Below are positions 3,541 to 42,287 of a DNA stretch of 53,800 nt, piece after piece. The DNA is from Clostridia bacterium (lineage in GTDB: Bacteria; Bacillota; Clostridia; Christensenellales; CAG-917): assembly GCA_024405515.1 (NCBI GenBank), contig JAKSOR010000004.1:1-53800 (forward strand), read 5' to 3'. Each line of letters begins with the position of its first letter. The stretch's first letter is position 1. The notes under the pieces were generated by a model. That model saw only the letters and a list, made by a program, of their open reading frames with translations, searched no databases and was not told the DNA's origin. Position numbers and translations under genes: made by a program.

Positions 3541-6500
3541 TTATTGATAATTCTTGCTTACCTTTATCAACGGAGCCACAGCAGAAAGATTGTCACGTGC
3601 TGAGAATGAATTTACCGATGCTCTATCGTTGCAGATGCAATATGTATTGAATGCTCTATCAGCATAATCAGCAGCACCTGGTGTTTGCGAAACAGCATTG
3701 GCGTCACAATCATTAAAACCTGAAGCATAGGCATAAGCCGAGCCTTTACCAGGAACCCCGAATGAGTTGACGTACGCCTGTAACTGGTCTCTTGTAGGAA
3801 GGGCAATAGTGTCAGGCATACCGGATGACGGCGGTAAAATCCATGAGCTTTCAGAATTAATAAACAACGCATTATACATATCAGCATTAATCCACTTTCT
3901 TATTTCAGAATGATAATAATCAGTCAATAGTAACTGAAGCCCATCATAGTAATAATAAATATAATGCATATCATACATATGAACATCAAGCACGCTGCAC
4001 GACATAAGTGTAAGATCAGTATCTGTTTCTCCTATAATAGCCCACAAAACAGGTTCGAATTTAAACCAGTACACGTTGTGAAGTTCATATCCGGAAGGCA
4101 TATCATGCGTATATCCCAAACTATAGATAGTGGTTTCAGGAACTTTATTTATCAGATAAAGAGCTCTGTATAATTCTCCGTTATATTCAAAATCAGCATG
4201 CCATCTCCATGGTTCCACTCTATCACCGCCATGTGAAGAATTTATTACGTATGCATTACCATGATATGCAGTTCTTGAATTGTATTTTGCTATAAGTCCA
4301 CTATCCGAAGTCTTATATGGACCTGCGACAAGAGAGTCTTCTCCATATGGATATAAGGTCACCTTATTTGCCAGGTCACAGAGACAAATATCTCCGTTTA
4401 CGAGGTCAACATACGGAAGCAATGTATAAGTCGTACCATTATTTGTTATCACAACTTTCGAAATTTTTGCCTTTGCAAAATTAGATGGCATATTATCGTC
4501 GTTATTCATTGCAAAGATATACAACGGGCGGGCATCTCTCCATCCTCCATCTGATAAAATTGAGTTCTCCGGAAAACCTCCTGGATATTCAGTAGAAGCA
4601 GAGAATCTGACTTGTGATGTACCGATTATTGTCTCTAACTGGGTTGATGTACCTGTGTATGAGAAAGCTACATCAATCTGAGTATCTGAATCCCAGAAAA
4701 AGTCAGTAGTATAACAGCATTGACCGGTATTTTCAACATATTCTATTGCAGCAAATCTCTTATTAAAATCTGCAATAAGAAGATTATTAAGATTGTTAAT
4801 TAAAGATGAATCTGTAACACGGGATGTAGGATAAGAGCCATACATAACATATTTGCCATCCTTATCCTGTTCTCCTTTCTCATTAACCCTAACCCAAGTC
4901 TTGAATCCGCATCTAGAGCAAAGTTCCCCTTCAAAATTATGACCTAAAGGTTCACCCACTGAGAATGTTTCAGTTGTACTGTGTTCTTTTCCGCACTTAC
5001 ATGACAGATAGTATTTTTTCGGTTCAGTACACGTTGCCGAGGAGGCTACATAACTCTCATTTATGTATTCGCCTAAATTATGTACCGGGTCTCCGTATGT
5101 AAACGTATCATCATGATCCGAGCAAACTGTTTCACAGTTAGCACAGGACTTGTAATAAATTGCAGGGCTTGTGCAGTTTGCAGGAGATTTCAGTGCTGAA
5201 TTCTTAACAATTTCTTTAGTAGGATCATGCGGTGCGTAATCTCCGTATGAGAATGTTTCAGTATCACTGCATGAACCACAGGTACATGATACATAGTATC
5301 TTGCAAGCTGTGTACATGTAGCAACTGACTTAAGATATCTGTCTTCAGCTATATGAAGTCCGTTTTCTCTTGAATAATCGCAGATATGGTTCTTATCAAG
5401 GACTACGGATACCATAGGTATAAGTCCGTATACAGGCTCATGGAGATTCGATATATTCTTCGCCCCGTCCTTAGTCCAGAGACGCATATCACCATCAGGT
5501 TCGACATAATAGTAAGATGCACCATCAGAATTTGTCTTAAGGCCTTTAATCCTTGAATATGTTGAATATTCTGTTAAACCTTCATCAAATACATAAGCCT
5601 CCTTGACCGGAGTGATTTCGGTTACCATTTCTTTCTGGAGGTTATTAAGTGCCATTCCCATGAAAATGCCATTCAGGTAATCCTTCAGGAATGAATTTTC
5701 ATAATTCAGGTTATTATTTGAGATAAACGGCACAGTCATAGAATCAATGGAACTGACGCAAACAAGATTTGCCCTTCCGTCTTTAAGGTCATGTATCTTC
5801 CAAAGAAGCGGTTCATACTTAAACCAGTACACTTTATTCAGTGCGAATCCGTTGACAGTTCCTCCTGTGTAATCTACACCATCAGGCAGAGAACTGTAAT
5901 AAATCGCCCTGTATCTGACTGTTTCGTTAGGGAGTTTCATTGCATAGTCATAATATGCACCCTCCCCGGTATTATAGTCACCGCTGAATTTCAGGTTCTC
6001 AATAAGTGTCCAGCCGTTGAGATTGTCCTTTGTCGGAAGATGCGATACTGCATCAAGTGAATTAAGTTTTGTTTCAACAGAAAGATTACGTACAAGTTCA
6101 AGCGGATATTCGCCGAACTGTATGTAGTCACCTTTCTTATTAGGTGTACCATCCGCATCACACCTTATATAAGACCATTCGCCGCACTTTAAGCATTTCC
6201 CGTTTTCATCAGGATTATGTCCTAAAGGATCCCCTACCGTGAATGTATATTTCTCATCACAACTTACTGCACCGCATTCACATGTCTTGTAGTAAGTAAG
6301 GGCATGAGTACAGTCCTGTTCACAGTAAAGATACCTTTCATCCTGTATCTGTTTATTAAATGTGCAGATGTGAATTACCGCTTCAGGATGAGGTGCAAAA
6401 CTGACATAATCAGGATATTCACGGCCTAATGTTATAGATGAAGTGCCACCGGCTGCAGCATCTGTATTAATTAATCTATCTGTGTTTTCCGGATAATAAG

Positions 6501-9500
6501 TCCTTGTCGGGATGTAAGATTTGTCGGCGCTCATCAAATAAGCATATGTGTTAGAAGTCAAAGCGGTAGTCTTACATGTTTTTAATATATTCCACAGTTC
6601 ATCCTTATCCGGAAGATACAGATAGTCTTTTGTTATAACCGTACCACGTCCAAGAGTTTCCGATCTTAAATTTGTCTGAAGAACATTTTCTAATTCAAGG
6701 GCACTAAATGCTTCATTATAAAAAACTTCGTTAAGCCATTCCCTTACATAAGAGAAATCCCAGTCTGTAGGATAATACTCAGTCTTCCCGTCAGGAGTTG
6801 TAGATTTTGCATTGTCAATGGAATACTGGAGTATGTCAGTATGGTCAATGGCCCAAATAGTATAAGTACTTTCGCTTGACCTTACAATTTTCCACAAGAT
6901 AGGCTCAAACTTAAAGACAACAACCTCTTTTGTCGGCATATCACTCATAGTGGGAGTGGCGTACAAAAATTTCTGTCTGTTATGAAGGAAGTATACTGCA
7001 CGGTATTTCTCCCCTTCATATTCAAAATCTTTATACCAGGCAAATTCTTCAGGATGGATACCACGTTCCGCAGCAGAATATACATAGAAATCGTATGGTG
7101 TCCAGCCTTTTCTGTCATATGTAAGTGCTGCCACCTCAACCGGAACAGCTCCAGCTATATTTTTAAGATTTGTCAAAAGTGTTCCGTCAGTTATCCTTGT
7201 CCTTGGATAATTGCCGAAAAGTACATAGTCTCCGTTTTCATTCGGAGTTCTGTCACTATTACATCTCATAGCTGTTGTCTGTCCGCAGTCCCTACACTTT
7301 CCGTTTTCAATTCTGTGTCCGGACTTAAGACCATACTCAAATGTATCTGATTCGTATCTGCTGCTCTTACCGCATGTACAGGACTTATAGTAGATAGCAG
7401 GACTTGTACAGGTGGCAACAGACTTTAATGCCTTACTGTTTACTACTTCCTGATCAAATTTGCAGACGTGTGTTGTTACAAGTGTTACCCAGCACTCAGG
7501 TACTATTCCCATTGAAGAATACTCAATCGGGTTTGATACAATTCCGTAGAAGTTTGCGGAACTTAAGACTTTCTTACCGTCTGTTGCAAAATTGTCCTCA
7601 CTGCCGGTATTCTCAGGGTTATACAGATACCACTGGTTATCATACTTGTCCACTCCGTCGAATCCCTGCTGACAGAGTGCATAATCACTTGCAACCTTAA
7701 AGTTGTTATAGTCGCTGCCGATTCCGTACTGTTCATACTGTGCTTTGCTTAAAAGTGTTACCTTATCGGCAAAAGCTTTTTTACCTGATACTGAATCCAC
7801 ACTGATTTTTTCGGATTTTAATCTTTCTCTCTGAAGCTGTGAGAATGCGGTAGTATAGAAATCATTAAGGAGCCAGTTTCTGAGATATGAGTACTCATAG
7901 TCATTAGCCATTGTTCCTTCAGGGATTTCATCTCCGACATTGTAGTAATTTCCTCCGTTTAAAGTAAACTGGTCAAAGAACGGCTGGAAATCAATAATGG
8001 ATGTACAGAGCACATGTGCTTCTCCGTTCATTTCTGACAGAATCTGCCATATTAGTCTTTCATACTTGAACCAGTATACAGTACCTGTCTTATATCCGTT
8101 CAGTTCCTGATATGATTCAGCATTAGACGGTGATAATGCCCTGTATTCATCAAAATACACTGCTCTGTATTTTTCATATTTATCATAATCTGCTTCGGTT
8201 GCTGCAGGTATTGTCAGTGTGTAGTCAAAGTACCACATATGTACTTCGCCGCTGACCACTGAAGTTCCGCTGACGAAATTGTTATATGAATATGGTGTCC
8301 AGTTATAGTAGTTATCTGCAGTCGGAAGAAGCGGGATATTTTTGTTAAGTGTACTGAGAAGAACGTTATCAGTTACTCTTGTCTGAGGATATTCACCAAA
8401 GAGAATATATCCTTCATCAGTTTCTGTTTCTCCGCCGAACTGATTACATCTGAGTGCAGACCAGAGGCCGCATCTTGAACATACGCCCTTCTTATCAAGA
8501 ACGTGTCCTAACGGGTCCTGTCTGTCTCTTACGATTTCATAATCGCAGTTAAGGCACTTATAAGTTGTATATCCGCCCTCTGAACATGTCGGGGCTTTTA
8601 CTGTTGCGGAAAGTGTATGACCAAGCGGCAGAGTCGGTTTAGCCTGTTCCATATGGCCGCAGTCCTTACATGTTCTGATTGTGTAACCGCCGGTTAAGCA
8701 TGTCGGGTCAATAACAACGTCATCGAAGTCATGATTTGCAGAATCAATTTCACCATATTCGGCTCCGCATCTCACACATTTTGCGAGTTTTGCACATGTC
8801 GGTGTACCGCCGGAGTGTCCGAGCGGTTCATATGATGCTGTTCTAGCGTTTGTTCCGTTGAAATAATATGTATGCTGATATCCGCTCTCTAAACATGTTG
8901 CAGGCTGCTCATCAACCTTATATGCACAGTCTGAAAGTGAATCGTTGTTTGGTTCAATTAAAATATTGTCAAGTCTTGCGTCATATTTTGCAGACTTAAG
9001 CATCGGGCATCTTGCAAATGCCCACTCCTCTACCAAGAGTGCAACGTTACCGAGTTCAACAGACTCAAGAACAGAACAGTCATAGAATGCCTGCTCACCG
9101 ATGTACTCAAGTCCGCCGGTTACTGTCATGTAGGAAAGTGAATAACAGTGGTTGAATGCAAGCTTATCAATCTCTATTACGTTTTCAGGAATTTCAATTC
9201 TTGTTAAGCCTCTGCAGTATTCGAATGTGCTTTCCTCAATCTTTGTGTAATTGCTGTTTTCCGGCAATGCAACAAGTCTTAAGTTCGATGCATAGCAGAA
9301 TGCATTCTTACCGATTGATTCAACGGTTGACGGAATAGTAAGTGTCGAGATTCCTCCTTCTTTGAATGCTCCCTCACCGATTGATTTAAGTCCGTCAGGA
9401 AGTTCCACTGTTGAAAGAACGGATGTTCCCTCAAATGCACTGGCTCCTATTGTTTCAACTGTTGCAGGAATCGAAATTCTCTGGAGAGCAGAACAGTATG

Positions 9501-10575
9501 CGAACATTTCTCTAGGAATATCAGTTAAAAGTAACGGGAGTGTTACAGAACGTAAGGACTCACATCTCTTGAATATTCCTGAACCCATCGTAACTATTGT
9601 CGACGGAATTACAACTTTTTCAATATAAACATTACCCCTGAAGGCACCTGTTGCTATATCAGTAACAGGAAGGTCTTTATAAGTTGCAGGGATTATTACC
9701 TCACTTTCAGAGCCTGAGTATGCTACAAGAGAATATTCCTCTTTTCCGTCTATCTTTTCGTATGTGAAAAGTTCAATCGGTTTAGGAATTACTGTTACAT
9801 AGCACTTTGCAAAAATACCGTTTGAAGCCTTGCTTCTAACAGTAACTATAATAGAACCTTTTGCTTTTGCTTCAAGAAGTCCGTTTTTATCTACGGATAA
9901 GAGTTCTCCTCTGTCTGTTTCCCATGTGACTTCTTTGTCAAAAGTATCATGAGGGAATACTTCAGCACTGAGCTGATATGTGTCTCCTATATACATCGTA
10001 AGCTCTGTGTCACTGAGTTCGATGTTGCTTGCAAATATGTTCTTTACCTTATCAAACTTGGCTGTATAAGTTACATCCTCTGTACATTTCTTTATTTCCG
10101 GCTCCCAACCGACGAAGACATAGGAGTATGTGTCGTCTCCTTCTCTTGTGGGAAGTTCACCCTTAAATGACGGAACTGTATCAATGACAACATCCTTGTC
10201 AGTTCTCAGGAGTGTTCCGTCGTAGTTGACCCATGTGATGATGAATGTATTGATATCACGTTTGCTCGGGTCTATTTTTTCAATAACACCGGTTTCGGAA
10301 TAACCACAGGTTTCACAGGTATGTTCTCTGAGACCTTCTTCCTCAACTGTTGCAGGTACGAGGATTTCCCATTCCCCGTAGTTATGCTCTTCGTAATTTT
10401 TTACTTCATCACAGTAAATACATGTCTGCCAGTGATATGTATCGTTGAAGGCATACACTTTTCTGTAACTGTGAGTATGAATAGATGCGTCCTCATTTTC
10501 GCCACAGGCAACCAGGCATGTGAATAATGCCATGATGACACATATTGCCAGTGCGATTCTAACGAATTTTTTCAT
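3541..10575 (-). CDS. Giant modular surface lipoprotein: Cys/His repeats, InlB B-repeat-like, Big_2, BspA-type LRR_5, four DUF6273-like modules
   Basis: Lipobox LVAC (Cys24); LRRs of type LxSVxLPxxLxxIGxxAF; repeated PTC...G...CxxCG...PLGH; four copies of Y[IV]x[FY]GxYP...FK[YF]Ex[LI]xW...[YF]xxSx[LVI][RK]x[WY][LI]. GGAGA RBS. Confidence 0.85.
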   Translation of the reverse strand: MKKFVRIALAICVIMALFTCLVACGENEDASIHTHSYRKVYAFNDTYHWQTCIYCDEVKNYEEHNYGEWEILVPATVEEEGLREHTCETCGYSETGVIEKIDPSKRDINTFIITWVNYDGTLLRTDKDVVIDTVPSFKGELPTREGDDTYSYVFVGWEPEIKKCTEDVTYTAKFDKVKNIFASNIELSDTELTMYIGDTYQLSAEVFPHDTFDKEVTWETDRGELLSVDKNGLLEAKAKGSIIVTVRSKASNGIFAKCYVTVIPKPIELFTYEKIDGKEEYSLVAYSGSESEVIIPATYKDLPVTDIATGAFRGNVYIEKVVIPSTIVTMGSGIFKRCESLRSVTLPLLLTDIPREMFAYCSALQRISIPATVETIGASAFEGTSVLSTVELPDGLKSIGEGAFKEGGISTLTIPSTVESIGKNAFCYASNLRLVALPENSNYTKIEESTFEYCRGLTRIEIPENVIEIDKLAFNHCYSLSYMTVTGGLEYIGEQAFYDCSVLESVELGNVALLVEEWAFARCPMLKSAKYDARLDNILIEPNNDSLSDCAYKVDEQPATCLESGYQHTYYFNGTNARTASYEPLGHSGGTPTCAKLAKCVRCGAEYGEIDSANHDFDDVVIDPTCLTGGYTIRTCKDCGHMEQAKPTLPLGHTLSATVKAPTCSEGGYTTYKCLNCDYEIVRDRQDPLGHVLDKKGVCSRCGLWSALRCNQFGGETETDEGYILFGEYPQTRVTDNVLLSTLNKNIPLLPTADNYYNWTPYSYNNFVSGTSVVSGEVHMWYFDYTLTIPAATEADYDKYEKYRAVYFDEYRALSPSNAESYQELNGYKTGTVYWFKYERLIWQILSEMNGEAHVLCTSIIDFQPFFDQFTLNGGNYYNVGDEIPEGTMANDYEYSYLRNWLLNDFYTTAFSQLQRERLKSEKISVDSVSGKKAFADKVTLLSKAQYEQYGIGSDYNNFKVASDYALCQQGFDGVDKYDNQWYLYNPENTGSEDNFATDGKKVLSSANFYGIVSNPIEYSSMGIVPECWVTLVTTHVCKFDQEVVNSKALKSVATCTSPAIYYKSCTCGKSSRYESDTFEYGLKSGHRIENGKCRDCGQTTAMRCNSDRTPNENGDYVLFGNYPRTRITDGTLLTNLKNIAGAVPVEVAALTYDRKGWTPYDFYVYSAAERGIHPEEFAWYKDFEYEGEKYRAVYFLHNRQKFLYATPTMSDMPTKEVVVFKFEPILWKIVRSSESTYTIWAIDHTDILQYSIDNAKSTTPDGKTEYYPTDWDFSYVREWLNEVFYNEAFSALELENVLQTNLRSETLGRGTVITKDYLYLPDKDELWNILKTCKTTALTSNTYAYLMSADKSYIPTRTYYPENTDRLINTDAAAGGTSSITLGREYPDYVSFAPHPEAVIHICTFNKQIQDERYLYCEQDCTHALTYYKTCECGAVSCDEKYTFTVGDPLGHNPDENGKCLKCGEWSYIRCDADGTPNKKGDYIQFGEYPLELVRNLSVETKLNSLDAVSHLPTKDNLNGWTLIENLKFSGDYNTGEGAYYDYAMKLPNETVRYRAIYYSSLPDGVDYTGGTVNGFALNKVYWFKYEPLLWKIHDLKDGRANLVCVSSIDSMTVPFISNNNLNYENSFLKDYLNGIFMGMALNNLQKEMVTEITPVKEAYVFDEGLTEYSTYSRIKGLKTNSDGASYYYVEPDGDMRLWTKDGAKNISNLHEPVYGLIPMVSVVLDKNHICDYSRENGLHIAEDRYLKSVATCTQLARYYVSCTCGSCSDTETFSYGDYAPHDPTKEIVKNSALKSPANCTSPAIYYKSCANCETVCSDHDDTFTYGDPVHNLGEYINESYVASSATCTEPKKYYLSCKCGKEHSTTETFSVGEPLGHNFEGELCSRCGFKTWVRVNEKGEQDKDGKYVMYGSYPTSRVTDSSLINNLNNLLIADFNKRFAAIEYVENTGQCCYTTDFFWDSDTQIDVAFSYTGTSTQLETIIGTSQVRFSASTEYPGGFPENSILSDGGWRDARPLYIFAMNNDDNMPSNFAKAKISKVVITNNGTTYTLLPYVDLVNGDICLCDLANKVTLYPYGEDSLVAGPYKTSDSGLIAKYNSRTAYHGNAYVINSSHGGDRVEPWRWHADFEYNGELYRALYLINKVPETTIYSLGYTHDMPSGYELHNVYWFKFEPVLWAIIGETDTDLTLMSCSVLDVHMYDMHYIYYYYDGLQLLLTDYYHSEIRKWINADMYNALFINSESSWILPPSSGMPDTIALPTRDQLQAYVNSFGVPGKGSAYAYASGFNDCDANAVSQTPGAADYADRAFNTYCICNDRASVNSFSARDNLSAVAPLIKVSKNYQ

Positions 10576-10780: not shown

Positions 10781-11452
10781 CTATTCTGTCTTCTCAGACT
10801 CAGCTGCATCAATGGCGCTGTGATAAATTTTCGATCTGAGTTCCTCGTAGTACACTGACTCGGCTGTTTTTACATACGGAGCAATGTAAATGAGAGCAAT
10901 TCCGAAAGTTATGACAGCAAGGAAATACCAGCCTATAAATGAAAGAATAAATACAAAATAATCCATTTTCATGCAGTCCATCATGGAAGCTGCTTTTTTT
11001 CTTGCTTCATCCCATTTAATCCCCGGATTATCGGCAATAACATAGTCAAGCTGTGAATACTTACACTGCCATATGATTCCAGGGACAATCAAAAGACAGT
11101 ATCCGAGTGCAATCTGAAGATCTGTAACAAGTTTACAGATAAATATCTGTACAAATTCATCAAACTTTGAGAAAAGATATCCGATATCATCTTCTTTGTA
11201 CCTTACGACATTGAGCATATAAAGTGCAAGACCAACCGATAACGGCATCAGAAGTACCGCTGCGATAACCGAAAGAACTCCGCCTATTGCTCCGAGTATT
11301 GCACCTGTCTCCCCTTCTATGGTCCCGAGTCCGTCAAACATTGACGGAATTCCAAGAATAAGCGCGTAAATAATCAGCGCCAGAAGAACTTTCCATTTCA
11401 GAGAATCTTTAATTGTGGTTTTTGCTATGCTTTTTATTTTACTTCTGTCCAT
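10781..11452 (-). CDS. DUF975-family membrane protein
   Basis: Motifs RSKIKSIAK, LLIVPGII...YSQLDY...DNP, SFIGW...TFGIA...PY...YYEEL. ATG at 11452 has a GGAGG RBS (the ORF track's 11476 start is upstream of it). Confidence 0.85.
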   Translation of the reverse strand: MDRSKIKSIAKTTIKDSLKWKVLLALIIYALILGIPSMFDGLGTIEGETGAILGAIGGVLSVIAAVLLMPLSVGLALYMLNVVRYKEDDIGYLFSKFDEFVQIFICKLVTDLQIALGYCLLIVPGIIWQCKYSQLDYVIADNPGIKWDEARKKAASMMDCMKMDYFVFILSFIGWYFLAVITFGIALIYIAPYVKTAESVYYEELRSKIYHSAIDAAESEKTE

Positions 11453-11530
11453 AACGTCCTCCAAAGCTGCTATCAACTATTATATATGTAAAACCTTGTA
11501 AACGGAATAATTATTCAGTAAATTAATTAT

Positions 11531-11588
11531 TTCTGTCATTGTCTTGTCCTAGATCACATGATAACATATAAGCACAAAAGAAGAAGAG
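11531..11588 (+). promoter_or_regulatory. Conserved upstream element, copy 1 (diverged)
   Basis: CTGTCATTGTCTTGTCC...TGATAACAT..AAGCACAA resembles copies 2 and 3; TTGTCT-17 bp-TAACAT with a TG extension. Confidence 0.6.
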
Positions 11589-11714
11589 CTAACTATAAAT
11601 AAGTCAAGTGATTTGTGATAAAAATTTAGGTTAGCAAATAAAATATAAAGGGTAATACATTAACTTGGATTTTATAATCAAGTTAAATCAAAATGTATTA
11701 TACAAGGGTTAAAA

Positions 11715-13364
11715 ATGCCAAACGAAAACGAAGTCATAAACAATGAAAATCCTAATAAACTCAGTGTCATAGAAGAAGTTATGAACGACGGTGATGAAAA
11801 CATTTATGCTAATGAGGATTTAAGAAAGGAAGTTGCTCTGGCTTTAGCTGAACAGATGAACAATACAGCGGCAGAACAGAAGATTCCTGATTATGACCCT
11901 ATTACTGAGGAAGACATCGATAAATTAATTGCAGACGAGGAAAAGTTAAGTCTCCATCTCGAGTGCAAAAAACTTCAGGAAAGATCAGTAAAGCAGCATG
12001 AGATTCTGCATCAGTACACAAGCGCAAACGCAAAACTTCCGAAAGATCAGCAGTTCAAAATTCAAAACACAAACACGTTTCTCTACGCATTTATTGATCC
12101 AGCAGACACAAAAGAAGCAAAAGCCAAAAATGATGCATTATTTGAAAAAATCCGTAAACAGGGAGATTTTTTCATAGCTGACCAGGCTATGGAAATTGCA
12201 AGAAACTTTGAAACAAAGAACTACTTCCCTAAAGATAATAGGGATGCCATGAAAATATATGCCGAACATTCTGATGAACTGAACATTCTTTTTGCACTAA
12301 ACAGAAACATTTCAAATAATATCACACCTGGAATGAGTGAAGAATGGAAAAAGGTTTATTCAGATAATATAAAACTATATGAAGCAACGGCTAATGCCAA
12401 ACTGATTGTTGAAGCAATCGGCTCTACTACTTACCTGTTATTACCTGAAGAAAAGTGCAATACGTTAGTAAGTCTGATGGCCGCAAGAGACGTACAGAAA
12501 AACGTAATTGACGTTTATTCAAAAAAAGGTGTTGATTTCGGTCCTGATCCGACCAACAAAATATCAAACCTGAATGACTTGAAAAGAGTCAGAACCGAAT
12601 GTGAGAAAGCAAACAAAGTAATGGATCAGCTTCCTGAAAAAATGTCGTTTGTCACCGCAGAAGTTCTGGATGAAAAAACGAACGAATACAAGCACATTAA
12701 GAACTCTGATGCCATTACCGCACTTTCAGAAGGCAAACAGGTTAAATTCACTGAACTTGATAAAAATGTTGTCGACATGTACAAAGGTGCAGAGGCAAAA
12801 ACCATAAATGACAAAATCACGGCAAAGAATAAACTTATCGAAGTAGATAAATATAAGGAATATCTTCAGAGATTACAGGATACACACACAATATTCCATA
12901 ATACATTCCTCTCCACTGATTCAGATGCATTCAAAAACATGGAAAATGCGCTGACAGATTATATAGAAGCAGCTGAGTCTGCTATTGATAAAGCCAAAAA
13001 GATCAGTAAAAACAATCCTGCAAACAATATCTCAGCAGAAGATTTCAAACTGCTTGCTGACAAAATGGAAAAAATTGAAAGAACTTCCGAGGCATACTAT
13101 CAAAAGAACAAATCCGTCAGCAGAAACCCGCGAAAAGAAGAACGTTTCCAGATTGCTAAAGAAATATTTGAAAACACCGATGGTCAGCAGCTCAAATTAG
13201 ATATAATGGGTGAAACTCAGTCAAAGATTATCCACAGACGCCATATGTCAATAATGGAAGCCGCGGATATTAAACCTATTAACGGACAGGTAAGCAAAGC
13301 TGTTGTGGCACCGTCAAAAGATATTGGCAAAAATGGACCGAGCATGGGACCTGAAAAGAAATAA
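11715..13364 (+). CDS. Unknown-function protein, paralogue 1 of tandem array
   Basis: 549-aa charged, probably helical ORF with no signal peptide or TM segment; shares motifs with the next two ORFs. Confidence 0.85.
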   Translation: MPNENEVINNENPNKLSVIEEVMNDGDENIYANEDLRKEVALALAEQMNNTAAEQKIPDYDPITEEDIDKLIADEEKLSLHLECKKLQERSVKQHEILHQYTSANAKLPKDQQFKIQNTNTFLYAFIDPADTKEAKAKNDALFEKIRKQGDFFIADQAMEIARNFETKNYFPKDNRDAMKIYAEHSDELNILFALNRNISNNITPGMSEEWKKVYSDNIKLYEATANAKLIVEAIGSTTYLLLPEEKCNTLVSLMAARDVQKNVIDVYSKKGVDFGPDPTNKISNLNDLKRVRTECEKANKVMDQLPEKMSFVTAEVLDEKTNEYKHIKNSDAITALSEGKQVKFTELDKNVVDMYKGAEAKTINDKITAKNKLIEVDKYKEYLQRLQDTHTIFHNTFLSTDSDAFKNMENALTDYIEAAESAIDKAKKISKNNPANNISAEDFKLLADKMEKIERTSEAYYQKNKSVSRNPRKEERFQIAKEIFENTDGQQLKLDIMGETQSKIIHRRHMSIMEAADIKPINGQVSKAVVAPSKDIGKNGPSMGPEKK

Positions 13365-13394
13365 GAACGTTATCATAACAAAATCCAAGATTAT

Positions 13395-13432
13395 TAAGAA
13401 CTGTGGTTAGTTATACTCACGGTTCTTATTTT
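13395..13432 (+). terminator. Terminator after paralogue 1
   Basis: TAAGAACTGTG...CACGGTTCTTA stem followed by TTTT. Confidence 0.65.
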
Positions 13433-13497
13433 GTCATAGTCTTGTCTTTATCTTTTTGATAAAATGTAAGCATAATAGAAAAAGAGAGGTAAAAATA
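13429..13497 (+). promoter_or_regulatory. Conserved upstream element, copy 2 (extended -10 promoter plus RBS)
   Basis: TTTTGTCATAGTCTTGTCTTTATC...TGATAAAAT...GAGGT; 55 of 58 nt identical to copy 3. Confidence 0.8.
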
Positions 13498-15096
13498 ATG
13501 CCACCTGAAAAATATGATAATCCGGATATTTTAACAAATCCAGAATTAAGAAATGAACTTGCACATGTCTTTGCCGAAAATTTAAACGGCACTATGTCCC
13601 AGTTGCCTTTTGAACAGACAGGATTTACGCCAATTACCGAACAGGAAATCAATGATATGCTTGCCGATCAGAGCATGATTGATACTCACCTTCAGGCAAA
13701 AGAACTTACGGAAAGGACAAAAAAGCAGCATGAAATCCTTGATAAGTATGATGATATAAACATGCTGAAACTTCCGGAAGACAAATGGTATTACACGAAT
13801 GTAAAGACAATTATGTTTACTTTCCTGGACCCATCTGGCACACCGGAAGCAAAGGAGAAAAATGACAAGCTTTTTGAAAGAATTAAAAACGAAGGCGATG
13901 GGTTCCTGGTAAAAAAAGCATTGGATATATGTACAAATTTTGACTATAACCTGCTTTTTGAAACAGACCCTGTAAAGAAAATGCAGATATATAAAGAGCA
14001 TCAGGATGAACTCAATGTAATGTTTGCAATTAACCGAAACATAGGTCCGCTCATCAATGACCTTCCTGAAGAAGCCCAGAATGTCTATAAGAACAATCTG
14101 AAAATAATCGAATCAGCTTCTAACATAAATCAGTTCGTAGAATCAGCAGCATCGCCTGTTTACCTGCTTATTCCTCAGAATAAACTTAAATCAGCAATTG
14201 CTGCAGCAACCGTAGTGCCTGTTATAAATCCGACTATCCAGGAATATGCTAAAGCCGGCGTAAATCTCGGAAATTACTCAAACAAACTGATGCTGTTGTC
14301 TAACGTTGCCAACTCCGATGAAGAATGCAAAAAGATTAAAGAAGCAATGAAATCCCTTCCGGACAAAGATATTCTTAAAGTCAAAGCAAAAGTTAAAGCC
14401 GCAGATTCAGATGAATATAAGGAACTCACTAATGCTGAAGCACTTATTGCGATAACAGAAGGCAAAGATGTTCAGTTCACTGTAGATGAAACCGGAGCCA
14501 AGAAAATAAGAGAGGCCGAGTTTAAGCCTTTGACACCGGAGAAAAAATTTGCTCTGGCAAAATTAGATGTAAAAGAAGAGACATACCATGTCGCAGAAAC
14601 AGCAAGATTCAGCGCATTACTTGAAAAACTTAAAGGAACACACACAATTGTTTCCTGGACACGTTTTTCAACAGATTCGGAGGCGTTTGAAAATCTTGAG
14701 GAATCACTTGAGACATTTGTGGACCTAACATCAAAAATCAAGTCAAGGACTTTAGATGATATGGATAATGTAAAAGTGTATCTTGATGCATACAAAGATC
14801 TTGAAGAAAAAGCGGGAAAGTATTATCACGAAAAACTCAGTCAGAGCAAGAACAGCAGAAGACAGCAGAGATTTGATATCGCAAAGGAAATATTTGAAGC
14901 TATGGACTCAAGGAGTATGGAAGGCCTTCTGAATCCTACAAAAGCTGAACTTGCACACAAACAGCATATCGAGGTTATGGAAGCAAGCGATGTGACAAAC
15001 AACAAAGCAAAAGACACGAGCAAAGCTGTAGAAAAATTAAACAAGGGATTTGATATACCTGCCCCTGCCCAACAGCCGAATGCCCCGAAAAAATAA
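13498..15096 (+). CDS. Unknown-function protein, paralogue 2 of tandem array
   Basis: 532 aa from ATG 13498 (GAGGT RBS; MPP start as in paralogue 3); shared motifs DPSGTPEAK, HQDELN, THTI...STDS. Confidence 0.85.
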   Translation: MPPEKYDNPDILTNPELRNELAHVFAENLNGTMSQLPFEQTGFTPITEQEINDMLADQSMIDTHLQAKELTERTKKQHEILDKYDDINMLKLPEDKWYYTNVKTIMFTFLDPSGTPEAKEKNDKLFERIKNEGDGFLVKKALDICTNFDYNLLFETDPVKKMQIYKEHQDELNVMFAINRNIGPLINDLPEEAQNVYKNNLKIIESASNINQFVESAASPVYLLIPQNKLKSAIAAATVVPVINPTIQEYAKAGVNLGNYSNKLMLLSNVANSDEECKKIKEAMKSLPDKDILKVKAKVKAADSDEYKELTNAEALIAITEGKDVQFTVDETGAKKIREAEFKPLTPEKKFALAKLDVKEETYHVAETARFSALLEKLKGTHTIVSWTRFSTDSEAFENLEESLETFVDLTSKIKSRTLDDMDNVKVYLDAYKDLEEKAGKYYHEKLSQSKNSRRQQRFDIAKEIFEAMDSRSMEGLLNPTKAELAHKQHIEVMEASDVTNNKAKDTSKAVEKLNKGFDIPAPAQQPNAPKK

Positions 15097-15118
15097 TCAG
15101 AAAAATCCAAGAAACAGT

Positions 15119-15157
15119 GGTGTTAAGAATTTAAATTCTTAGCACCTTTCTTTTTTT
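15119..15157 (+). terminator. Terminator after paralogue 2
   Basis: GGTGTTAAGAATTT/AAATTCTTAGCACC hairpin followed by TTTCTTTTTTT. Confidence 0.75.
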
Positions 15158-15220
15158 GTCATAGTCTTGTCTTTATCCTTGTGATAAAATGTAGGCATAA
15201 TAGAAAAAGAGGTAGAAATA
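15154..15220 (+). promoter_or_regulatory. Conserved upstream element, copy 3 (extended -10 promoter plus RBS)
   Basis: Near-identical to 13429-13486; TG-A-TAAAAT at 15182-15190; GAGGT RBS. Confidence 0.8.
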
Positions 15221-16843
15221 ATGCCACCAACAGGAAATAATATCAACATTTACGAAGATGTCGAAACAAGAAAAAAAATTGCATTAGAAATGGCAAATGC
15301 TCTTAACGAAGATGTCGGCAAATTCCCTTCAGAAATAACGGGCTATACTAATATCACCGAAAAAGACATTGATGATATGATTAACGACAAAGAGCATATG
15401 AACAGACATCTGCGTGCAAAAGCACTTGTTGACAGATCCAACAAGCAGACGGAAATTTTGGGTGAATGGAAAAAAGAAAACGCAGCTAAGCCACTGCAGG
15501 ACAGAGTATTTTATCCGAATGTTAGCACAATAATGTACTCGTTCATTGACCCATCTGGCACTCCGGAAGCTAAAAAGAAAAATGATGAACTTTTTGAAAG
15601 AGTAAAGAACGAAGGGGATACTTTTTTACTGAAAAAAGCATTTGAGGTTATCAGCAATTTTGATTATCAACAGTTGTTTGAGCCTGATGAAAACAAAAAA
15701 TTTGACATATATGAAAAGCACCAGGATGAACTGAATATAATGTTCGCAATTCACAGAAGCCTGGCTAATAATGGTATGCTTGAAAAATTACCGAAATCTA
15801 CTTTAGAAGTATATGAAAACAACAAAAAAATAATAGAATCCGCATCAAATATTAAATCGACAGTAGAAGGTATGGGTTCAACTATGTTCCTTTTGATACC
15901 GGAAAACAAAATGACAAAACTGACATCAGTCTCTATGGGTGGAAAAGCGATTCATGATACTTTGAAGCCTTATGTCGAAAACGGATTTAATCCAGGGAAA
16001 GATCCAATTAATGATGTCAATAATATAGTAACCCCTTGCTCACTAGAAGAAGAAAACAAAAAAATAGCGGATGCTTTTAAAACTGTCAAGCCAAAAAATG
16101 TTCTTAATATGACTGCAAAAATTTACGATTCTGAAAAAAAGCAATATGTAAATGTTACTAACTATGAAGGACTTCTGGCACATGCAGAGGGTAAACAAGT
16201 AATTTTTACCGAAGATAAGAATGGGAAGGATATTTTTAAAGAGACAGAATTCCCAGACCTACATAAAGAAGATAGGCTATCTATAATTAAATCAACATTA
16301 ATATCTACAGAATACAACAAAAAAGAAGGCGAACGTCTTAAAGGTCTACTCAAAAAGTTACAAGACACACATACTATATTTTCAAATACACGTTTTTCAA
16401 CAGATTCGGAAGAATTTGAGAACTTAGAAGATTCATTAGAACGTTTTATTCATGTAACCGAACAGATTAATAAGGATACATTTAAAGGTCCTGACGGAAA
16501 AGACAACATGAAAGTATATCTGGATGCATACAAAAATTTAGAAGATAGCGCCGGGAAATATTATAATGCTAAAATAAATCAATCAAAAAATGACAGAAGA
16601 CAGAAAAGATTTGATATAGCTGAAGAAATTTTCAAATCAATGGACAGCAGGCAAATAGATGAAGCTGTAAATGGCCCGTCAAAAGCTTTAATTGCACATA
16701 GGCAGCACATATCTGTCATGGAAGCAAGTGATATAACTAACAGTGGCAAATCAAAAGATGTAAGCAAAGCAGTAAATCAACTTGCCAAAGGTCTTGATTA
16801 TAAAGAACCACAGAAAGGTCAAAAATTAAACGTCTCTAAATAA
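15221..16843 (+). CDS. Unknown-function protein, paralogue 3 of tandem array
   Basis: 540 aa, collinear similarity with paralogues 1 and 2. Confidence 0.85.
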   Translation: MPPTGNNINIYEDVETRKKIALEMANALNEDVGKFPSEITGYTNITEKDIDDMINDKEHMNRHLRAKALVDRSNKQTEILGEWKKENAAKPLQDRVFYPNVSTIMYSFIDPSGTPEAKKKNDELFERVKNEGDTFLLKKAFEVISNFDYQQLFEPDENKKFDIYEKHQDELNIMFAIHRSLANNGMLEKLPKSTLEVYENNKKIIESASNIKSTVEGMGSTMFLLIPENKMTKLTSVSMGGKAIHDTLKPYVENGFNPGKDPINDVNNIVTPCSLEEENKKIADAFKTVKPKNVLNMTAKIYDSEKKQYVNVTNYEGLLAHAEGKQVIFTEDKNGKDIFKETEFPDLHKEDRLSIIKSTLISTEYNKKEGERLKGLLKKLQDTHTIFSNTRFSTDSEEFENLEDSLERFIHVTEQINKDTFKGPDGKDNMKVYLDAYKNLEDSAGKYYNAKINQSKNDRRQKRFDIAEEIFKSMDSRQIDEAVNGPSKALIAHRQHISVMEASDITNSGKSKDVSKAVNQLAKGLDYKEPQKGQKLNVSK

Positions 16844-16844
16844 C

Positions 16845-16868
16845 AAATGCCGCTCACGAGCGGCATTT
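16845..16868. terminator. Bidirectional terminator
   Basis: AAATGCCGCTC-AC-GAGCGGCATTT between convergent genes. Confidence 0.8.
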
Positions 16869-16871
16869 CAA

Positions 16872-17522
16872 TTAGTCTTTTAATATAAGATCCGCGACAT
16901 CCATCGGAGTATCTACGATGAAGTCAGCGGAGTATTTTTCAAACTCTTCCCTACTCCCGTATCCCCATAATCCAGCCACACATTTTATGCCAGCCTGATG
17001 TGCTCCTTCAATATCATAGAGTCTATCACCAACCATCAGAACACGGCTTTTATCTGTAATATTTAATGCATTAAACACTATGTTTATGACATCTTTCTTA
17101 GTTTCAGCCGATTTGTCATCACTGGCGCCTCCAACAAAATCAAAGTACTTTCTGAGCCCGAATCCATCGATAATATCATTGGAAAATTTCAGTGGTTTTG
17201 AGGTTGCGACTGCAAGGTGAAGGCCGGCATTTTTCAGCCTATCCAGAGACTCACAGATGCCCGGATAGACAGATGCTTCCTTCCATCCTCTTTCCTTATA
17301 TTCTCCCCTGTAGATTCTTATGAAATCCTCTATGTTATCGATATCGACATCGAACAGTTCTTTCATTGAGGTTCTGAAAGGAGGTCCTATCATTGAATTA
17401 AGCTGAGCCTCTGTGTAAGTGATTCCCTTTGCATCAAGAGATAATCTGATGCACCTTTTAACCCCAGGAGCTGAGTCCATAAGTGTTCCGTCTAAATCGT
17501 ACAGGATATAATCGTATTTCAT
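16872..17522 (-). CDS. HAD-family hydrolase (phosphoglycolate phosphatase / 5'-nucleotidase-like)
   Basis: Motif I DLDGTL, motif II ATSK, motif IV MVGDRLYDIEGA. Confidence 0.9.
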   Translation of the reverse strand: MKYDYILYDLDGTLMDSAPGVKRCIRLSLDAKGITYTEAQLNSMIGPPFRTSMKELFDVDIDNIEDFIRIYRGEYKERGWKEASVYPGICESLDRLKNAGLHLAVATSKPLKFSNDIIDGFGLRKYFDFVGGASDDKSAETKKDVINIVFNALNITDKSRVLMVGDRLYDIEGAHQAGIKCVAGLWGYGSREEFEKYSADFIVDTPMDVADLILKD

Positions 17523-23836: not shown

Positions 23837-23887
23837 ATATACAGGTTAATTATATCATAATTACGGCCGTAATAAAGATTGGGAATT

Positions 23888-25375
23888 TCAGAGTTTAACC
23901 TGAATTTCAAGAGTCAGATAAATAAAATCAAAGCCGCCTTTTTTCTTCCTGGCTGTTTCTTTAAAACCGAGTTTTTCAAGATTTTTAAGGGACGGAATAT
24001 TGTCAAACTGAACAACTGCGCAAAGAACACATGGTGCCATGGTTTTACTAACAAAATTAATCACATACTGGCAAAGGTAATTCGAAAGTCCTTTTTTCTG
24101 ATGATACGGGCATGTCATGATTCCGCTGAATTCAAAGTATTTTATGTCTCTTTCATCCCCGCAGATATTTTTAAGTTCCAGCCCGTACGCCTCATCTTCA
24201 TCCGCGCAGCATGTGCACACGAGGTGATTTTTATAAAAGAGACCGAACATATGGCCGTTTTCAAGAACGCCCTCGAGTTCGTCATCAGTAAAATTCATGA
24301 ACCATTTTTTATCACTGAGTTTGGAAATTCCGCACTTATAAAATGACATTGCCCTGTTAAAATCCTGACTTGCTAATTCCCTGAGTTCATAATCCTCAAA
24401 ACCTGCTGTCTTAATTTCGTCCGTGAGCCAGCTGCTTTCAGAAATATTTGAGATATTTACGGAAGGATTGAAGAAAGGATCATCGTCAAAACAAGGAACC
24501 GGCATTCTCTCCTGGGCATCATTATGGATAAGGACATATTTATCAATTAAAAATGCAGGATTATAGCTGAGTTTTGATTTCCTAAGTCCCTCAATTCCCA
24601 TATCTTCCTGTCGGTTTATATACCTGCATCCTGAAAAATGTCTTACGGCAAATTCATGTGAAAGGAACGAATAGATACCCTCAAATGACGTATCTGCCTT
24701 CTCTACGGTAACCACCGCATTGCCGGATGCCATTATCTCACCGATGGTAAAGCCTGCAAGTTTTCCGTCTATTCTTAAGACATCGCATATGGTGTTCCCT
24801 TTAAGAGATGCCTCAGCCTCGCGTACTATAATCCCGGACTCTTCCTCAGCACTTATTTTCTGATATTCAGTATCAAAGACCTTCCCTTCAAGCCAGGCTT
24901 TTTCAAATTTTAAAATGTCCTCCCTGTCACTTTCAGAGAACGGTCTCATCTCAAAACTGTATAAAGATCTGAACTTTTTTATGTGGTTTCTCTTGCCTGA
25001 ATATTTGCTCCCTTCCTGCCTTATAAAATCTCCGGCATCGTATATATATTCAGACCAGTCTCTTTTTGTAAAAATCTGGAACCTGTCAGAAAGAAGATCC
25101 GCCTTATCCTTTGTAAAAGATGTGAAAGTGCAGTCTTCAGGGAGCCTGCTTAATGCCTCTAAAAAGCTCACACTTCCTTTTGTTAAAGGCGGCCAGTATC
25201 TTAATTTGTCTCCGAAAAATGCCCTGATAAAAAGGCAGTCATCCTCTTCCGCATATTCGGTATCAAACCATATAAGATACCCGTAATATGAAAAATCACT
25301 GCCTGCGTATCCTGAATCTTTCAGGTATGCTGACAGCAATTCTATGTTTTCTTCTGTAAATGGTTTAAAATTCAT
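23888..25375 (-). CDS. DUF2156 (aaPGS C-terminal-like) domain fused to a C-terminal GNAT domain
   Basis: EYIY...GSKYSGKRNHIKKF, VEKAD...GIY, YINRQEDMGIEGLRKSKLSYNP; C-terminal acetyl-CoA motif HQKKGLS...NIPSLKNLEKLGF. Confidence 0.88.
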   Translation of the reverse strand: MNFKPFTEENIELLSAYLKDSGYAGSDFSYYGYLIWFDTEYAEEDDCLFIRAFFGDKLRYWPPLTKGSVSFLEALSRLPEDCTFTSFTKDKADLLSDRFQIFTKRDWSEYIYDAGDFIRQEGSKYSGKRNHIKKFRSLYSFEMRPFSESDREDILKFEKAWLEGKVFDTEYQKISAEEESGIIVREAEASLKGNTICDVLRIDGKLAGFTIGEIMASGNAVVTVEKADTSFEGIYSFLSHEFAVRHFSGCRYINRQEDMGIEGLRKSKLSYNPAFLIDKYVLIHNDAQERMPVPCFDDDPFFNPSVNISNISESSWLTDEIKTAGFEDYELRELASQDFNRAMSFYKCGISKLSDKKWFMNFTDDELEGVLENGHMFGLFYKNHLVCTCCADEDEAYGLELKNICGDERDIKYFEFSGIMTCPYHQKKGLSNYLCQYVINFVSKTMAPCVLCAVVQFDNIPSLKNLEKLGFKETARKKKGGFDFIYLTLEIQVKL

Positions 25376-42207: not shown

Positions 42208-42258
42208 TTTTACCCTTTCTAGACCAAAGTCTAGAATGCTGCATTATAGTATTTTATT

Positions 42259-42287
42259 ATATTAGCACAAATTGCCATTCATGGCAA
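42259..42287 (-). promoter_or_regulatory. Promoter of the phoH operon
   Basis: TTGCCA-17 bp-TAATAT with a TG extension. Confidence 0.55.

Follow-up and report, generated by a model that had tools for sequence, protein, structure and literature searches.

To our knowledge, nearly all T4SSs that translocate proteins, and the effectors they carry, have been described in diderm pathogens, and a monoderm T4SS is usually treated as a conjugation machine. In the Icm/Dot regulons of Legionella and Coxiella, effectors have been found through the PmrA box, a direct repeat next to the -10 element. The X-Tfes of Xanthomonadales carry a C-terminal XVIPCD domain and depend on a VirB/VirD4 system. For Patescibacteria, the accessible part of a recent paper describes T4SS clusters of monoderm (MPF-FATA-like) type that have VirB2-like pilins and lack a relaxase, and suggests co-option for a non-conjugative role in these small-genome bacteria (PMC12102498). 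That part of the paper, which deals with the apparatus, contains no substrate family like the one described below.

In this study, we analysed a stretch of 53,800 nucleotides from a Clostridia bacterium (contig JAKSOR010000004.1; hereafter the window) that carries a tandem array of three genes. We tentatively read this array, at slightly under an even chance, as an accessory repertoire that is co-regulated with a T4SS and whose proteins are probably translocated substrates.

11715-13364, + strand: par1 (P0001), ORF of 549 aa; closest relative P0005 (40% identity)
13498-15096, + strand: par2 (P0002), ORF of 532 aa from ATG
15221-16843, + strand: par3 (P0003), ORF of 540 aa; protein used for the structure model; missing in some strains

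The three genes are collinear on one strand and each protein begins MP. The ATG of par2 is preceded by a GAGAGG ribosome-binding site; an alternative TTG at 13456 would give 546 aa. Judged by protein alignment, the ORFs are genuine paralogues: identity is 36-37% for par1 against either of the others and 48% between par2 and par3, and 133 columns are invariant. These include ITE, HL, KQ.EIL, DP..T.EAK.KND.LFE, IY..H.DELN and LL.P, and further THTI....STDS..F.N.E, YY...S.N.R...RF.IA.EIF, H..H...MEA.D and SKAV. The first-pass annotation had described three unrecognised paralogues of about 540 aa, each in its own cassette; this description holds, and all of its motif blocks lie within the invariant columns. 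Its statement that the array opposes the dominant gene orientation is likewise correct, with 31 of the 35 non-nested ORFs of at least 120 aa outside the array on the - strand (hand count); the exceptions are two ORFs at 155-2748 and those at 23879-24346 and 41726-42265, which only partly overlap - strand genes. No transmembrane helix or hydrophobic stretch was found in the three proteins (highest 19-residue Kyte-Doolittle mean at most 1.09), and their N-termini are polar. Their pI is 5.3-6.0 and their last 40 residues carry a net charge of +2 to +3. Over the whole family, the tail charge ranges from -11 to +3 without conservation, and no common C-terminal signal is evident among the members.

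The three proteins are diverged members of an undescribed and very rare family, soluble and with two predicted helical domains. No family in Pfam, NCBIfam, PHROGs or PADLOC matched par1-3 at E <= 0.001, and none of the searches returned a confident match to a characterised family. The best Pfam and NCBIfam scores were 11-19 bits against cut-offs of at least 27 bits, the best PHROGs scores, for which there is no curated cut-off, were 13-16 bits (E 0.018 or worse), and the relatives P0005-P0011 were likewise without a curated match in Pfam-A, NCBIfam and PHROGs. A count of family members, as proposed in the first-pass annotation, gave 10 matches in a profile search of 1.84 billion representatives, of which four are proteins of the window itself or near-copies of these, and whole-genome profile searches within the genus did not find the family in 35 of 36 genomes. 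Genomes with a family-profile match numbered 2 of 61 (E limit 0.01), 2 of 401 (0.001) and 1 of 28 (0.001). A weak match was seen in G007 (E 0.005 over 72 residues). The ESM Atlas gave no usable match, and the look-up of family clusters gave no named member. Contig scans with the family alignment were negative in genome, viral and metagenome collections, as was P0006 as a query against genome contigs. Full-text searching found no description of such a family in the literature accessible in that form.

The structure of par3 was predicted with AlphaFold:

Residues 1-345 of par3: N-domain
Residues about 348-486 of par3: four-helix bundle, the C-terminal module
Residues 500-540 of par3: disordered tail

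The predicted architecture is an all-alpha N-domain of about 290 residues with a small beta insert, modelled with confidence (pLDDT 90.6), followed by the four-helix bundle and the lysine-rich tail. Foldseek gave no PDB match (best E 0.08 for the whole model and 0.46 for the N-domain), solved structures searched by sequence reached only E 0.2, viral structures (BFVD) E 0.09, and the wide VIA-align search with the N-domain Z 6.2 over 110 of 345 residues. For residues 348-486, the wide VIA-align search returned only generic four-helix bundles (top Z 10.7). The C-terminal module aligns, as a four-helix bundle, with the four-helix-bundle membrane-localisation (4HBM) domains of MARTX, TcdA and similar toxins (5xn7_B, Z 8.6, rmsd 3.2, 93 aligned; 5uqk_A, Z 7.6, rmsd 4.0, 87 aligned), but unrelated bundles score higher (Z 9-10.7), chance matches of helical bundles typically come to about Z 14 according to the alignment tool's own remark, and the toxin domains have no sequence relation to it.

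The C-terminal module is modular: it also terminates proteins with other N-terminal parts, namely P0015, P0010, P0011 and P0018, of which P0011 and P0018 hold three N-domain repeats each. As in the X-Tfes, a conserved C-terminal module (about 120 residues) is joined to varied N-terminal parts. Unlike the X-Tfes, the array is without adjacent immunity genes and without a toxin domain, the T4SS is of the monoderm type, and interaction with VirD4 is only putative; no relation in sequence to the X-Tfes was seen. A complex prediction of VirD4 (160-760) with P0003 (345-540) scored 0.00, which weighs neither way on binding.

The regions between the genes contain the following features:

11534..11567, + strand: par1 promoter box, TGTCATTGTCTTGTC, 10 nt, then TGATAACAT; exact 15-mer match, PWM score 41.3, from aligned upstream regions
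11591..11714, + strand: par1 extra leader, an insert of about 113 nt relative to par2 and par3 between the common leader and the ATG, from the upstream alignment
13396..13432, + strand: terminator-like hairpin after par1, AAGAACTGTGG...CACGGTTCTT, then ATTTT; seen by eye, uncalled in the terminator scan
13432..13465, + strand: par2 promoter box, TGTCATAGTCTTGTC, N10, TGATAAAAT; 15-mer, composite-pattern and PWM match
15119..15156, + strand: intrinsic terminator after par2, hairpin and T-run at 15119-15146; 12-bp stem, then TTTCTTTTTT
15157..15190, + strand: par3 promoter box, TGTCATAGTCTTGTC, N10, TGATAAAAT; 15-mer, composite-pattern and PWM match
16845..16868, no strand assigned: G+C-rich hairpin, bidirectional terminator common to par3 and the convergent HAD gene

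Ahead of each paralogue, TGTCAYWGTSTTGTC is followed by N10 and an extended -10 (TGaTAAAAT), with a weak -35; a TGTC-N7-TGTC box takes the place of the -35 region in this putative promoter. Within the extra leader of par1 lies an inverted repeat of 8 bp (TTAACTTG...CAAGTTAA), and a promoter scan showed a second promoter-like site there, at 11615-11644. The proposal of a separate promoter for each gene is supported in that a conserved element precedes each, but a generic sigma-70 scan did not call the boxes at 11534, 13432 and 15157 and showed no promoter excess (22 found vs 24.5 expected). Separate terminators were also proposed; those after par2 and par3 stand, the latter being shared with the HAD gene, whereas the one after par1 was recognised by eye only. 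The promoter-leader element is far better kept than the genes: between par2 and par3 it is identical at 60 of 66 nt (90.9%), the coding sequences at only 60.4%. Together with the paralogy, this supports the earlier description of a duplicated, diverging and co-regulated family.

With at most one mismatch, the 15-mer TGTCATWGTCTTGTC occurs six times in the 1.24 Mb genome, namely before par1-3, 49 nt before a pilin ATG, before a 465-aa gene on contig C58 and once on C32, where the setting is ambiguous. The composite pattern of box, N9-11 and -10, the box being derived from the paralogues' own upstream regions, has six matches, all directly ahead of a start codon, and 0 in each of 20 shuffled genomes. 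A PWM built from seven sites, including the pilin site as the weakest of them (37.4 bits), added two sites on C18 and C45 and gave 0 in 5 shuffles. The box stands at the front of the pilin-VirB6-like-VirB4 operon of the T4SS and before at least five further orphan genes for hydrophilic proteins, with genes on C18, C26, C45 and C58 among them, and 7 of the 8 non-pilin box genes start MP. None of the five box genes outside the array has a Pfam match, and the other box-driven proteins show no detectable relation to the array family (hhalign probability 0.1-1%, including 0.1% and 0.2% in two comparisons of alignments). A C-terminal look-alike motif, W..hhP...IN.hK..L..G, noticed by eye between P0006, P0007, P0009 and the box-driven proteins outside the array, is not significant (E 0.05, probability 1%) and is unrelated to the C-terminal module of the array.

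As in the Icm/Dot regulons, a direct-repeat box beside the -10 is common to genes of the secretion apparatus and to scattered genes, many of them paralogous, whose function is unknown and whose products show no apparent signal. The Icm/Dot regulons differ in that they involve another T4SS class, a diderm intracellular pathogen and another box sequence, and there is no sequence similarity; par1-3 are candidate substrates, and their regulator is putative.

The T4SS lies on contig C2 of the same genome, which encodes VirD4 (PF02534), a 2680-aa protein, the pilin, a 459-aa membrane protein and a VirB4 that is 68% identical to VirB4 of genome G316. C2 ends 355 nt past virB4, and the array, on a different contig, does not adjoin the T4SS. 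Searches for two relaxase families, PF03432 and PF02486, gave no match in the assembly, which is 87% complete. The combination of VirB4, a PF18895 pilin and a membrane protein with no relaxase detected resembles the Patescibacteria clusters, as far as the accessible part of PMC12102498 shows; compared with that case, the window's genome belongs to another phylum, has VirD4 and is a small Firmicute-like gut genome.

G316 belongs to another family of the same order. Its contig C21 carries, on a single strand and with gaps of 18-21 nt, a surface protein, a T4SS pilin (PF18895), a 238-aa protein, a 459-aa membrane protein and a VirB4-like ATPase (matching PF19044, DUF87 and AAA_10), directly followed by P0013 (545 aa), P0014 (506 aa) and P0015 (356 aa). 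P0013 and P0014 are distant tandem relatives of the array: P0014 matches the family profile with E 3e-15, and both match over their full length (1e-145 and 3e-174) a wider profile that itself contains both. The same gene order, with P0020 and P0019, was found on the metagenome contig L030. As these loci, with L031 as a further one, come from a single lineage, the operon synteny amounts to about one independent observation. The family appears to be linked to a T4SS genetically or by co-regulation, because relatives stand directly after virB4 and the box is common to the pilin operon and par1-3 (0 in shuffles); co-occurrence with T4SS loci, which the first-pass annotation had proposed to look for, is thus observed both in the distant relatives and in the window's genome. 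Neither a family member nor the box was seen in the five genomes of the genus whose T4SS is closest (VirB4 64-66%), the virB4-downstream regions among them being examined for L013-L016 and partly L017. Therefore, the T4SS can do without the family's proteins, and the link does not hold everywhere. The box pattern is also absent at the G316 and L030 loci. A family member downstream of virB4 was found in none of 12 regions, which come from 10 of the 11 genomes of the genus that have this VirB4 type and from G043 and G046, two genomes of other families, and a role as a VirB-like structural component was rejected, since the family is not conserved with the apparatus (these 12 regions and 35 of 36 genomes negative). 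A sigma-like 173-aa gene follows virB4 in L013-L016; it has no good match in the window's genome (23% identity, E 8e-4).

The array sits in an accessory stretch of the genome, because, of 46 genomes of the genus, 1 has its DUF975 neighbour, and the gene order breaks at the HAD gene. Some strains are without par3, which implies gain or loss at strain level: a contig joining 15120 directly to 16866 omits the gene. X3, X4 and X5 have little or no cover over 15240-16898, and the evidence for this strain form is taken from joining contigs only, with low cover excluded.

We propose that par1-3 would belong to the regulon of the VirB4/VirD4 T4SS, each driven by its own copy of the TGTC-N7-TGTC box promoter. 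One regulator, an activator or a dedicated sigma factor, would turn on the apparatus and the protein set together; the proteins, putatively without a Sec signal, would then be recognised by and passed to the T4SS and delivered, either to the outside or into another cell in contact, where any activity would be that of effectors. It is tempting to favour such substrates because distant relatives reside in a T4SS operon, the genome holds the same T4SS type, the promoter box is common to the array and the pilin operon, and box and leader were kept while the coding sequences drifted. The modular C-terminal module points the same way, as do the lack of transmembrane segments, the pI and the positive tails of par1-3. 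The population genetics would be effector-like, given the patchy distribution, paralogue expansion, par3-less variant and accessory setting. The earlier suggestion of secreted effectors thereby gains circumstantial support, par1-3 being candidates only. Against it, the presence of VirD4 means that the T4SS may serve conjugation alone.

Possible, though doubtful, is that par1-3 act inside the cell as cargo of a mobile element that bears the T4SS, expressed with the transfer genes and not transported, with roles as anti-defence, establishment, regulatory or scaffold proteins. The patchiness of the VirB4 type (11 of 36 same-genus genomes) would fit, as would the serine recombinases, ParA and methylase-like genes downstream of virB4 in those genomes, as on integrative elements, and the relatives in G316 and L030 fill a variable slot after conserved transfer genes. 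The multi-domain relatives P0010, P0011 and P0018 (962-1449 aa) presumably resemble large polyvalent proteins of conjugative elements. However, no anti-restriction, defence or regulator family was matched, the structure searches found no nucleic-acid-binding or enzymatic fold, and the box genes, those of the array included, are dispersed among housekeeping genes, not within one element.

It is improbable that par1-3 are orphan cytosolic proteins unrelated to secretion, with the box marking a general condition-specific regulon and the position in G316 being coincidental. Such genomes commonly encode helical proteins restricted to a lineage, secretion of par1-3 is putative, and the family is missing from the five genomes with the closest T4SS; yet none of the 9 detected box sites precedes a housekeeping gene, the detectable set being only the T4SS operon and orphan hydrophilic proteins, and in another family of the order tandem members lie at most 21 nt from virB4 on the same strand. 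An anti-phage or decoy system of three specificity variants, also suggested in the first-pass annotation, would suit paralogues that diverge in tandem within an accessory region and are present or absent depending on the strain, but is very improbable, as PADLOC-DB 2.0 (library from 2023) gave 0 families at E <= 1 for all three paralogues, Pfam and NCBIfam showed no nuclease, NTPase, protease or sensor domain, the neighbours include no defence genes, and tblastn of P0003 found no homologue in plasmids and phages.

Returning to par1-3 as T4SS substrates, a gut bacterium of about 1.2-1.9 Mb has a VirB4/VirD4/pilin cluster tied by one promoter box to orphan signal-less proteins. If these are substrates, the box would be a simple computational handle to list effectors in uncultured gut anaerobes, the family would supply a confidently modelled domain without a structural match, and the strain-variable array would be a natural experiment on effector gain and loss. 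More speculatively, and rather unlikely as it stands, the monoderm-type T4SS could be recast as a protein-delivery machine with a box regulon of at least 8 scattered substrates from several undescribed families. The array would then be one effector family, with a predicted N-domain fold unmatched among solved or viral structures and a strain-variable copy number, and a Firmicute-like commensal would have a box-defined T4SS effector repertoire. If the proteins are not secreted, the analysis would still have defined a regulon of a T4SS element and two protein families, all of them new.

The first-pass annotation had described a tandem array of three paralogues, and this was confirmed. par1, par2 and par3 are collinear ORFs whose products align over their whole length.

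11715-13364, plus strand: par1, encoding P0001 (549 aa)
13498-15096, plus strand: par2, encoding P0002 (532 aa); an alternative TTG at 13456 adds 14 residues
15221-16843, plus strand: par3, encoding P0003 (540 aa)

P0002 and P0003 are 48% identical, and P0001 shares 36-37% identity with either. The motif blocks picked out earlier by eye are indeed present among the 133 invariant columns of the alignment, and the array does run against the dominant gene orientation: 31 of the 35 outside ORFs (non-nested, at least 120 aa), the immediate neighbours included, lie on the minus strand. With pI values of 5.3-6.0 the proteins range from acidic to neutral; their hydrophilicity is strong (GRAVY -0.63 to -0.83), and no hydrophobic stretch was found in them (highest 19-residue hydropathy mean 1.09). 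Nearly all family members, and genes driven by the promoter box described below, start with Met-Pro; position 2 is Pro in at least 90% of 14 aligned family members. The three genes make up a genuine, well-formed array from an undescribed protein family.

For P0001-P0003, no match was obtained in Pfam-A, NCBIfam, PHROGs or PADLOC at E <= 0.001, and nothing was found in PDB sequences, the ESM Atlas or, by tblastn, plasmid and phage collections. Searched against 1.84 billion cluster representatives, the P0001-P0003 profile matched 10 proteins at E <= 0.001, including the window's own three, P0004 (99% identical to P0003) and P0005 (563 aa), whose relationship is clear (E 3e-135). Four distant, similar-sized proteins (P0006-P0009) match mainly over the N-terminal 250 residues. 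Of two longer proteins, P0010 (962 aa) shares just the C-terminal module, to which P0011 (1443 aa) adds three repeats of the N-domain. Ten clusters were checked for a name, and none has one. A word-indexed search found two matches among 5.8 billion clusters, and the C-terminal module used as query gave eight among longer proteins. Three family copies, and no more, were found in the own assembly, which is 87% complete with 1.24 Mb in 80 contigs. Matches occur in 2 of 61 relatives, own genome counted (the second, in G007, is weak: 72 residues, E 0.005), in 2 of 401 genomes of the order and in 1 of 28 genomes of the family of G316, a genome discussed below. A full-text literature search, with most subscription literature outside its coverage, listed no comparable family. 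par1-3 are shown to be old paralogues from a family that is very rare.

A full-length AlphaFold2 model of P0003 (8-sequence alignment; pLDDT 80.5, pTM 0.64) is predicted to comprise:

14 to 289: helices
297-331: small three-stranded insert
about 348-505: helical bundle
500-540: disordered tail

Modelled alone (residues 1-345, 14 sequences), the N-domain reached pLDDT 90.6 and pTM 0.86. Foldseek gave a best E of 0.46 in the PDB and 0.09 in BFVD, and the VIA all-against-all comparison a best Z of 6.2 spanning 110 of 345 residues. The N-domain therefore has no recognisable structural relative in the libraries searched. Its confident prediction has no structural match, which does not by itself establish a new fold. 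With the whole P0003 model, all strong VIA rows fell on residues 348-486, whose four-helix bundle is of a generic kind (top Z 10.7). Toxin membrane-localisation bundles, at Z 8.6 and 7.6, scored in the midst of unrelated bundles.

The flanks of the array are chromosomal. On one side lie:

10781-11476: DUF975 membrane protein
3541-10575, minus strand: BspA-LRR/DUF6273/Big_2 protein of 2344 aa, a lipoprotein-like surface protein
2800-3483, minus strand: polytopic membrane protein of 227 aa, after the 2344-aa protein

The 227-aa protein has a sub-threshold T4SS_pilin match (15.9 bits, E 0.015), and its pairing with the 2344-aa protein recalls the giant-protein-plus-pilin order of the T4SS (type IV secretion system) cluster. 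The other flank carries HAD phosphatase, M16 peptidase, PNPase, ValRS, SmpB and more housekeeping genes. HAD belongs to the genus core, being present in 44 of 46 genomes (own counted; identity 51-60%). The DUF975 gene occurs in the own genome only (1 of 46), and its absence from the 45 others makes the left flank accessory too. Gene order was compared with five relatives picked out of the 43 having HAD. In all five, ValRS follows HAD by 1.4-2.5 kb on the same strand, whereas the own genome has ValRS 9 kb upstream of HAD, whose 3' end borders on the array. The array therefore stands at a gene-order break, in an accessory stretch.

The metagenome runs in which the stretch was found come from the gut and faeces of animals, and no RNA runs were listed among them. 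Contigs of run X2 cover it entirely. A contig of X4, from a different study, and a minor X2 contig join 15120 to 16866; the 1745 nt left out comprise the whole of par3, in whose place stand 34 other letters. Forms with par1 and par2 only therefore exist, and the array has two or three copies by strain. Contigs also stop matching at 11421 and 13884 (both X2-X4), with the same foreign continuation across contigs, and at 11707 (X2 and X4), where the continuations differ between the two runs. These recurring loose ends hint at further variants and suggest that the left end of the array and par2 have alleles that are recombinant or alternative. The array genes are thus shown to be accessory and variable among strains.

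A conserved element lies 5' of par1, par2 and par3: TGTCATWGTCTTGTC, 10 nt, then TGATAAAAT (in par1, TGATAACAT), and a leader with a purine-rich ribosome-binding site. By its sequence, it looks like an extended -10 promoter with a TGTC-N7-TGTC direct repeat in the -35 place. Between par2 and par3 the element is identical at 60 of 66 nt (90.9%), the CDSs at only 60.4%. par1 alone has about 113 nt extra between the common leader and the ATG (window 11591-11714). This insert, with its 8-bp inverted repeat and its second promoter-like site at 11615-11644, may act as a control element in its own right. A generic sigma-70 scan did not call the element sites of par1-3 and found no promoter excess. 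Terminator-like hairpins follow all three genes, that of par1 recognised by eye.

A genome-wide search for the 15-mer that tolerated at most two mismatches found exact copies upstream of par1, par2 and par3 and one on contig C32. On contig C2, a copy with one mismatch lies 49 nt upstream of the pilin ATG, with the same 10-nt spacing to TAATAAAAT, and one-mismatch and two-mismatch copies on C58 and C26 precede three further genes. The C32 copy (G000:C32 4923-4937) lies in apparent coding sequence upstream of a histidine-kinase-like ORF, lacks a -10 part and may have arisen by chance or serve as a binding site. A composite of the box, a 9-11 nt spacer and a -10-like part matched six times, always directly 5' of a start codon, and never in 20 shuffled genomes. 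A PWM from seven sites added two, on C18 and C45, and scored none above the same threshold in five shuffles. The genes concerned are:

C2: pilin operon, box-driven
window: par1-3, box-driven
465-aa and 422-aa MPDYKQEM... proteins, box-driven
very start of C58: third MPDYK gene, upstream region missing
510-aa MPGFDYKK... protein, box-driven
553-aa protein, box-driven
353-aa MPVSIEEF... protein, box-driven

All products behind the box are hydrophilic, and 7 of the 8 non-pilin genes have an MP start. Outside the array and pilin operon, none of the five box-driven proteins matched Pfam. They form at least one further family (A9), which hhalign did not relate to the array family. A C-terminal motif seemingly common by eye to P0006, P0007, P0009 and box proteins was not significant. 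The MPDYKQEM... family has three copies (C58 18-1271; C58 1407-2801, L041; C26 1375-2640, L040) and the 510-aa relative. The tandem C58 copies have an identical C-terminal block of ~70 residues vs 42% identity overall, a pattern that suggests gene conversion. In the own genome, the box 5' of par1-3 is thus shown to stand before the T4SS operon as well, and before a few more orphan genes.

The T4SS cluster on C2 encodes:

VirD4 coupling protein (PF02534, E 3e-54)
2680-aa protein
pilin (42.9 bits, above cut-off)
296-aa protein
459-aa membrane protein
VirB4, 68% identical to that of G316

C2 ends 355 nt past virB4, within an acidic low-complexity ORF. This ORF, P0012 (L012, C2 17845-18180), is extremely acidic and basic and is clipped by the contig end. 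The apparatus resembles the monoderm T4SS clusters of Patescibacteria, which have VirB2-like pilins and no relaxase (PMC12102498).

Apart from the own genome, just one of the genomes searched in the order, G316 from another taxonomic family, has a match to the array family. Its locus, on one strand throughout, reads:

gene 1: 957-aa surface protein
gene 2: T4SS pilin (PF18895, E 5e-10)
gene 3: 238-aa protein
gene 4: 459-aa polytopic membrane protein
gene 5: 888-aa VirB4-like ATPase (PF19044, DUF87, AAA_10)
genes 6 and 7: P0013 (545 aa) and P0014 (506 aa), preceded by gaps of 18 and 21 nt
gene 8: P0015 (356 aa), with only the C-terminal module in common with the family

P0014, which is 24% identical to P0013, scores E 3e-15 against the family profile. 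The G316 order recurs on L030, a metagenome contig of 133 kb, where virB4 is followed by P0020 and P0019 and these by an Opp transporter. The two loci are related to each other, so they amount to roughly one independent case. Distant relatives of the array family are thereby shown to be operon partners of virB4. The box pattern was not found at either locus; the pilin's intergenic region there is short.

It is tempting to propose that a single regulator would turn on the T4SS and the array/box-gene set together, and that the array proteins, which apparently lack a Sec signal, would be T4SS substrates. The likeliest recognition part would be the C-terminal module plus tail; the module also ends P0010, P0011, P0015 and P0018, whose N-terminal parts differ. 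We advance this joint reading tentatively, as the likeliest of those considered, falling short of probable. Neither the family nor the box was found in the five genomes of the genus whose T4SS is most similar, the synteny comes from a single lineage and the tail charge is not conserved, all of which weigh against substrates. The T4SS may also be simply conjugative, VirD4 being present; two relaxase families were not found in the own, incomplete assembly.

The main rival, that the array proteins are intracellular cargo of the T4SS element, is less likely while still deserving attention. The own VirB4 type is patchy (11 of 36 same-genus genomes), and the gene content of 12 virB4-downstream regions, with a sigma-like 173-aa gene and a ~1370-aa protein, serine recombinases, ParA and similar genes, fits a mobile element; hmmsearch and phmmer found no family members there. 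In L013-L016 (G020, G013, G012, G004), the post-virB4 slot holds the sigma-70-like 173-aa gene and the uncharacterised ~1370-aa protein. A dedicated sigma factor of this kind would be a candidate reader of box-type promoters. An unrelated regulon is unlikely, and a defence system, with nothing found in PADLOC, is very improbable.

The new evidence ties the array to a T4SS regulon circumstantially. In Legionella and Coxiella, the effector regulon has the PmrA box in common with the secretion apparatus, and Xanthomonadales effectors have a common C-terminal recognition domain, XVIPCD. The logic here is similar to both, in the common box and in the common C-terminal part; we saw no sequence relation and claim no membership. 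Array and T4SS would represent a putative secretion apparatus with co-regulated accessory or effector genes, of known logic in an unusual type of host.
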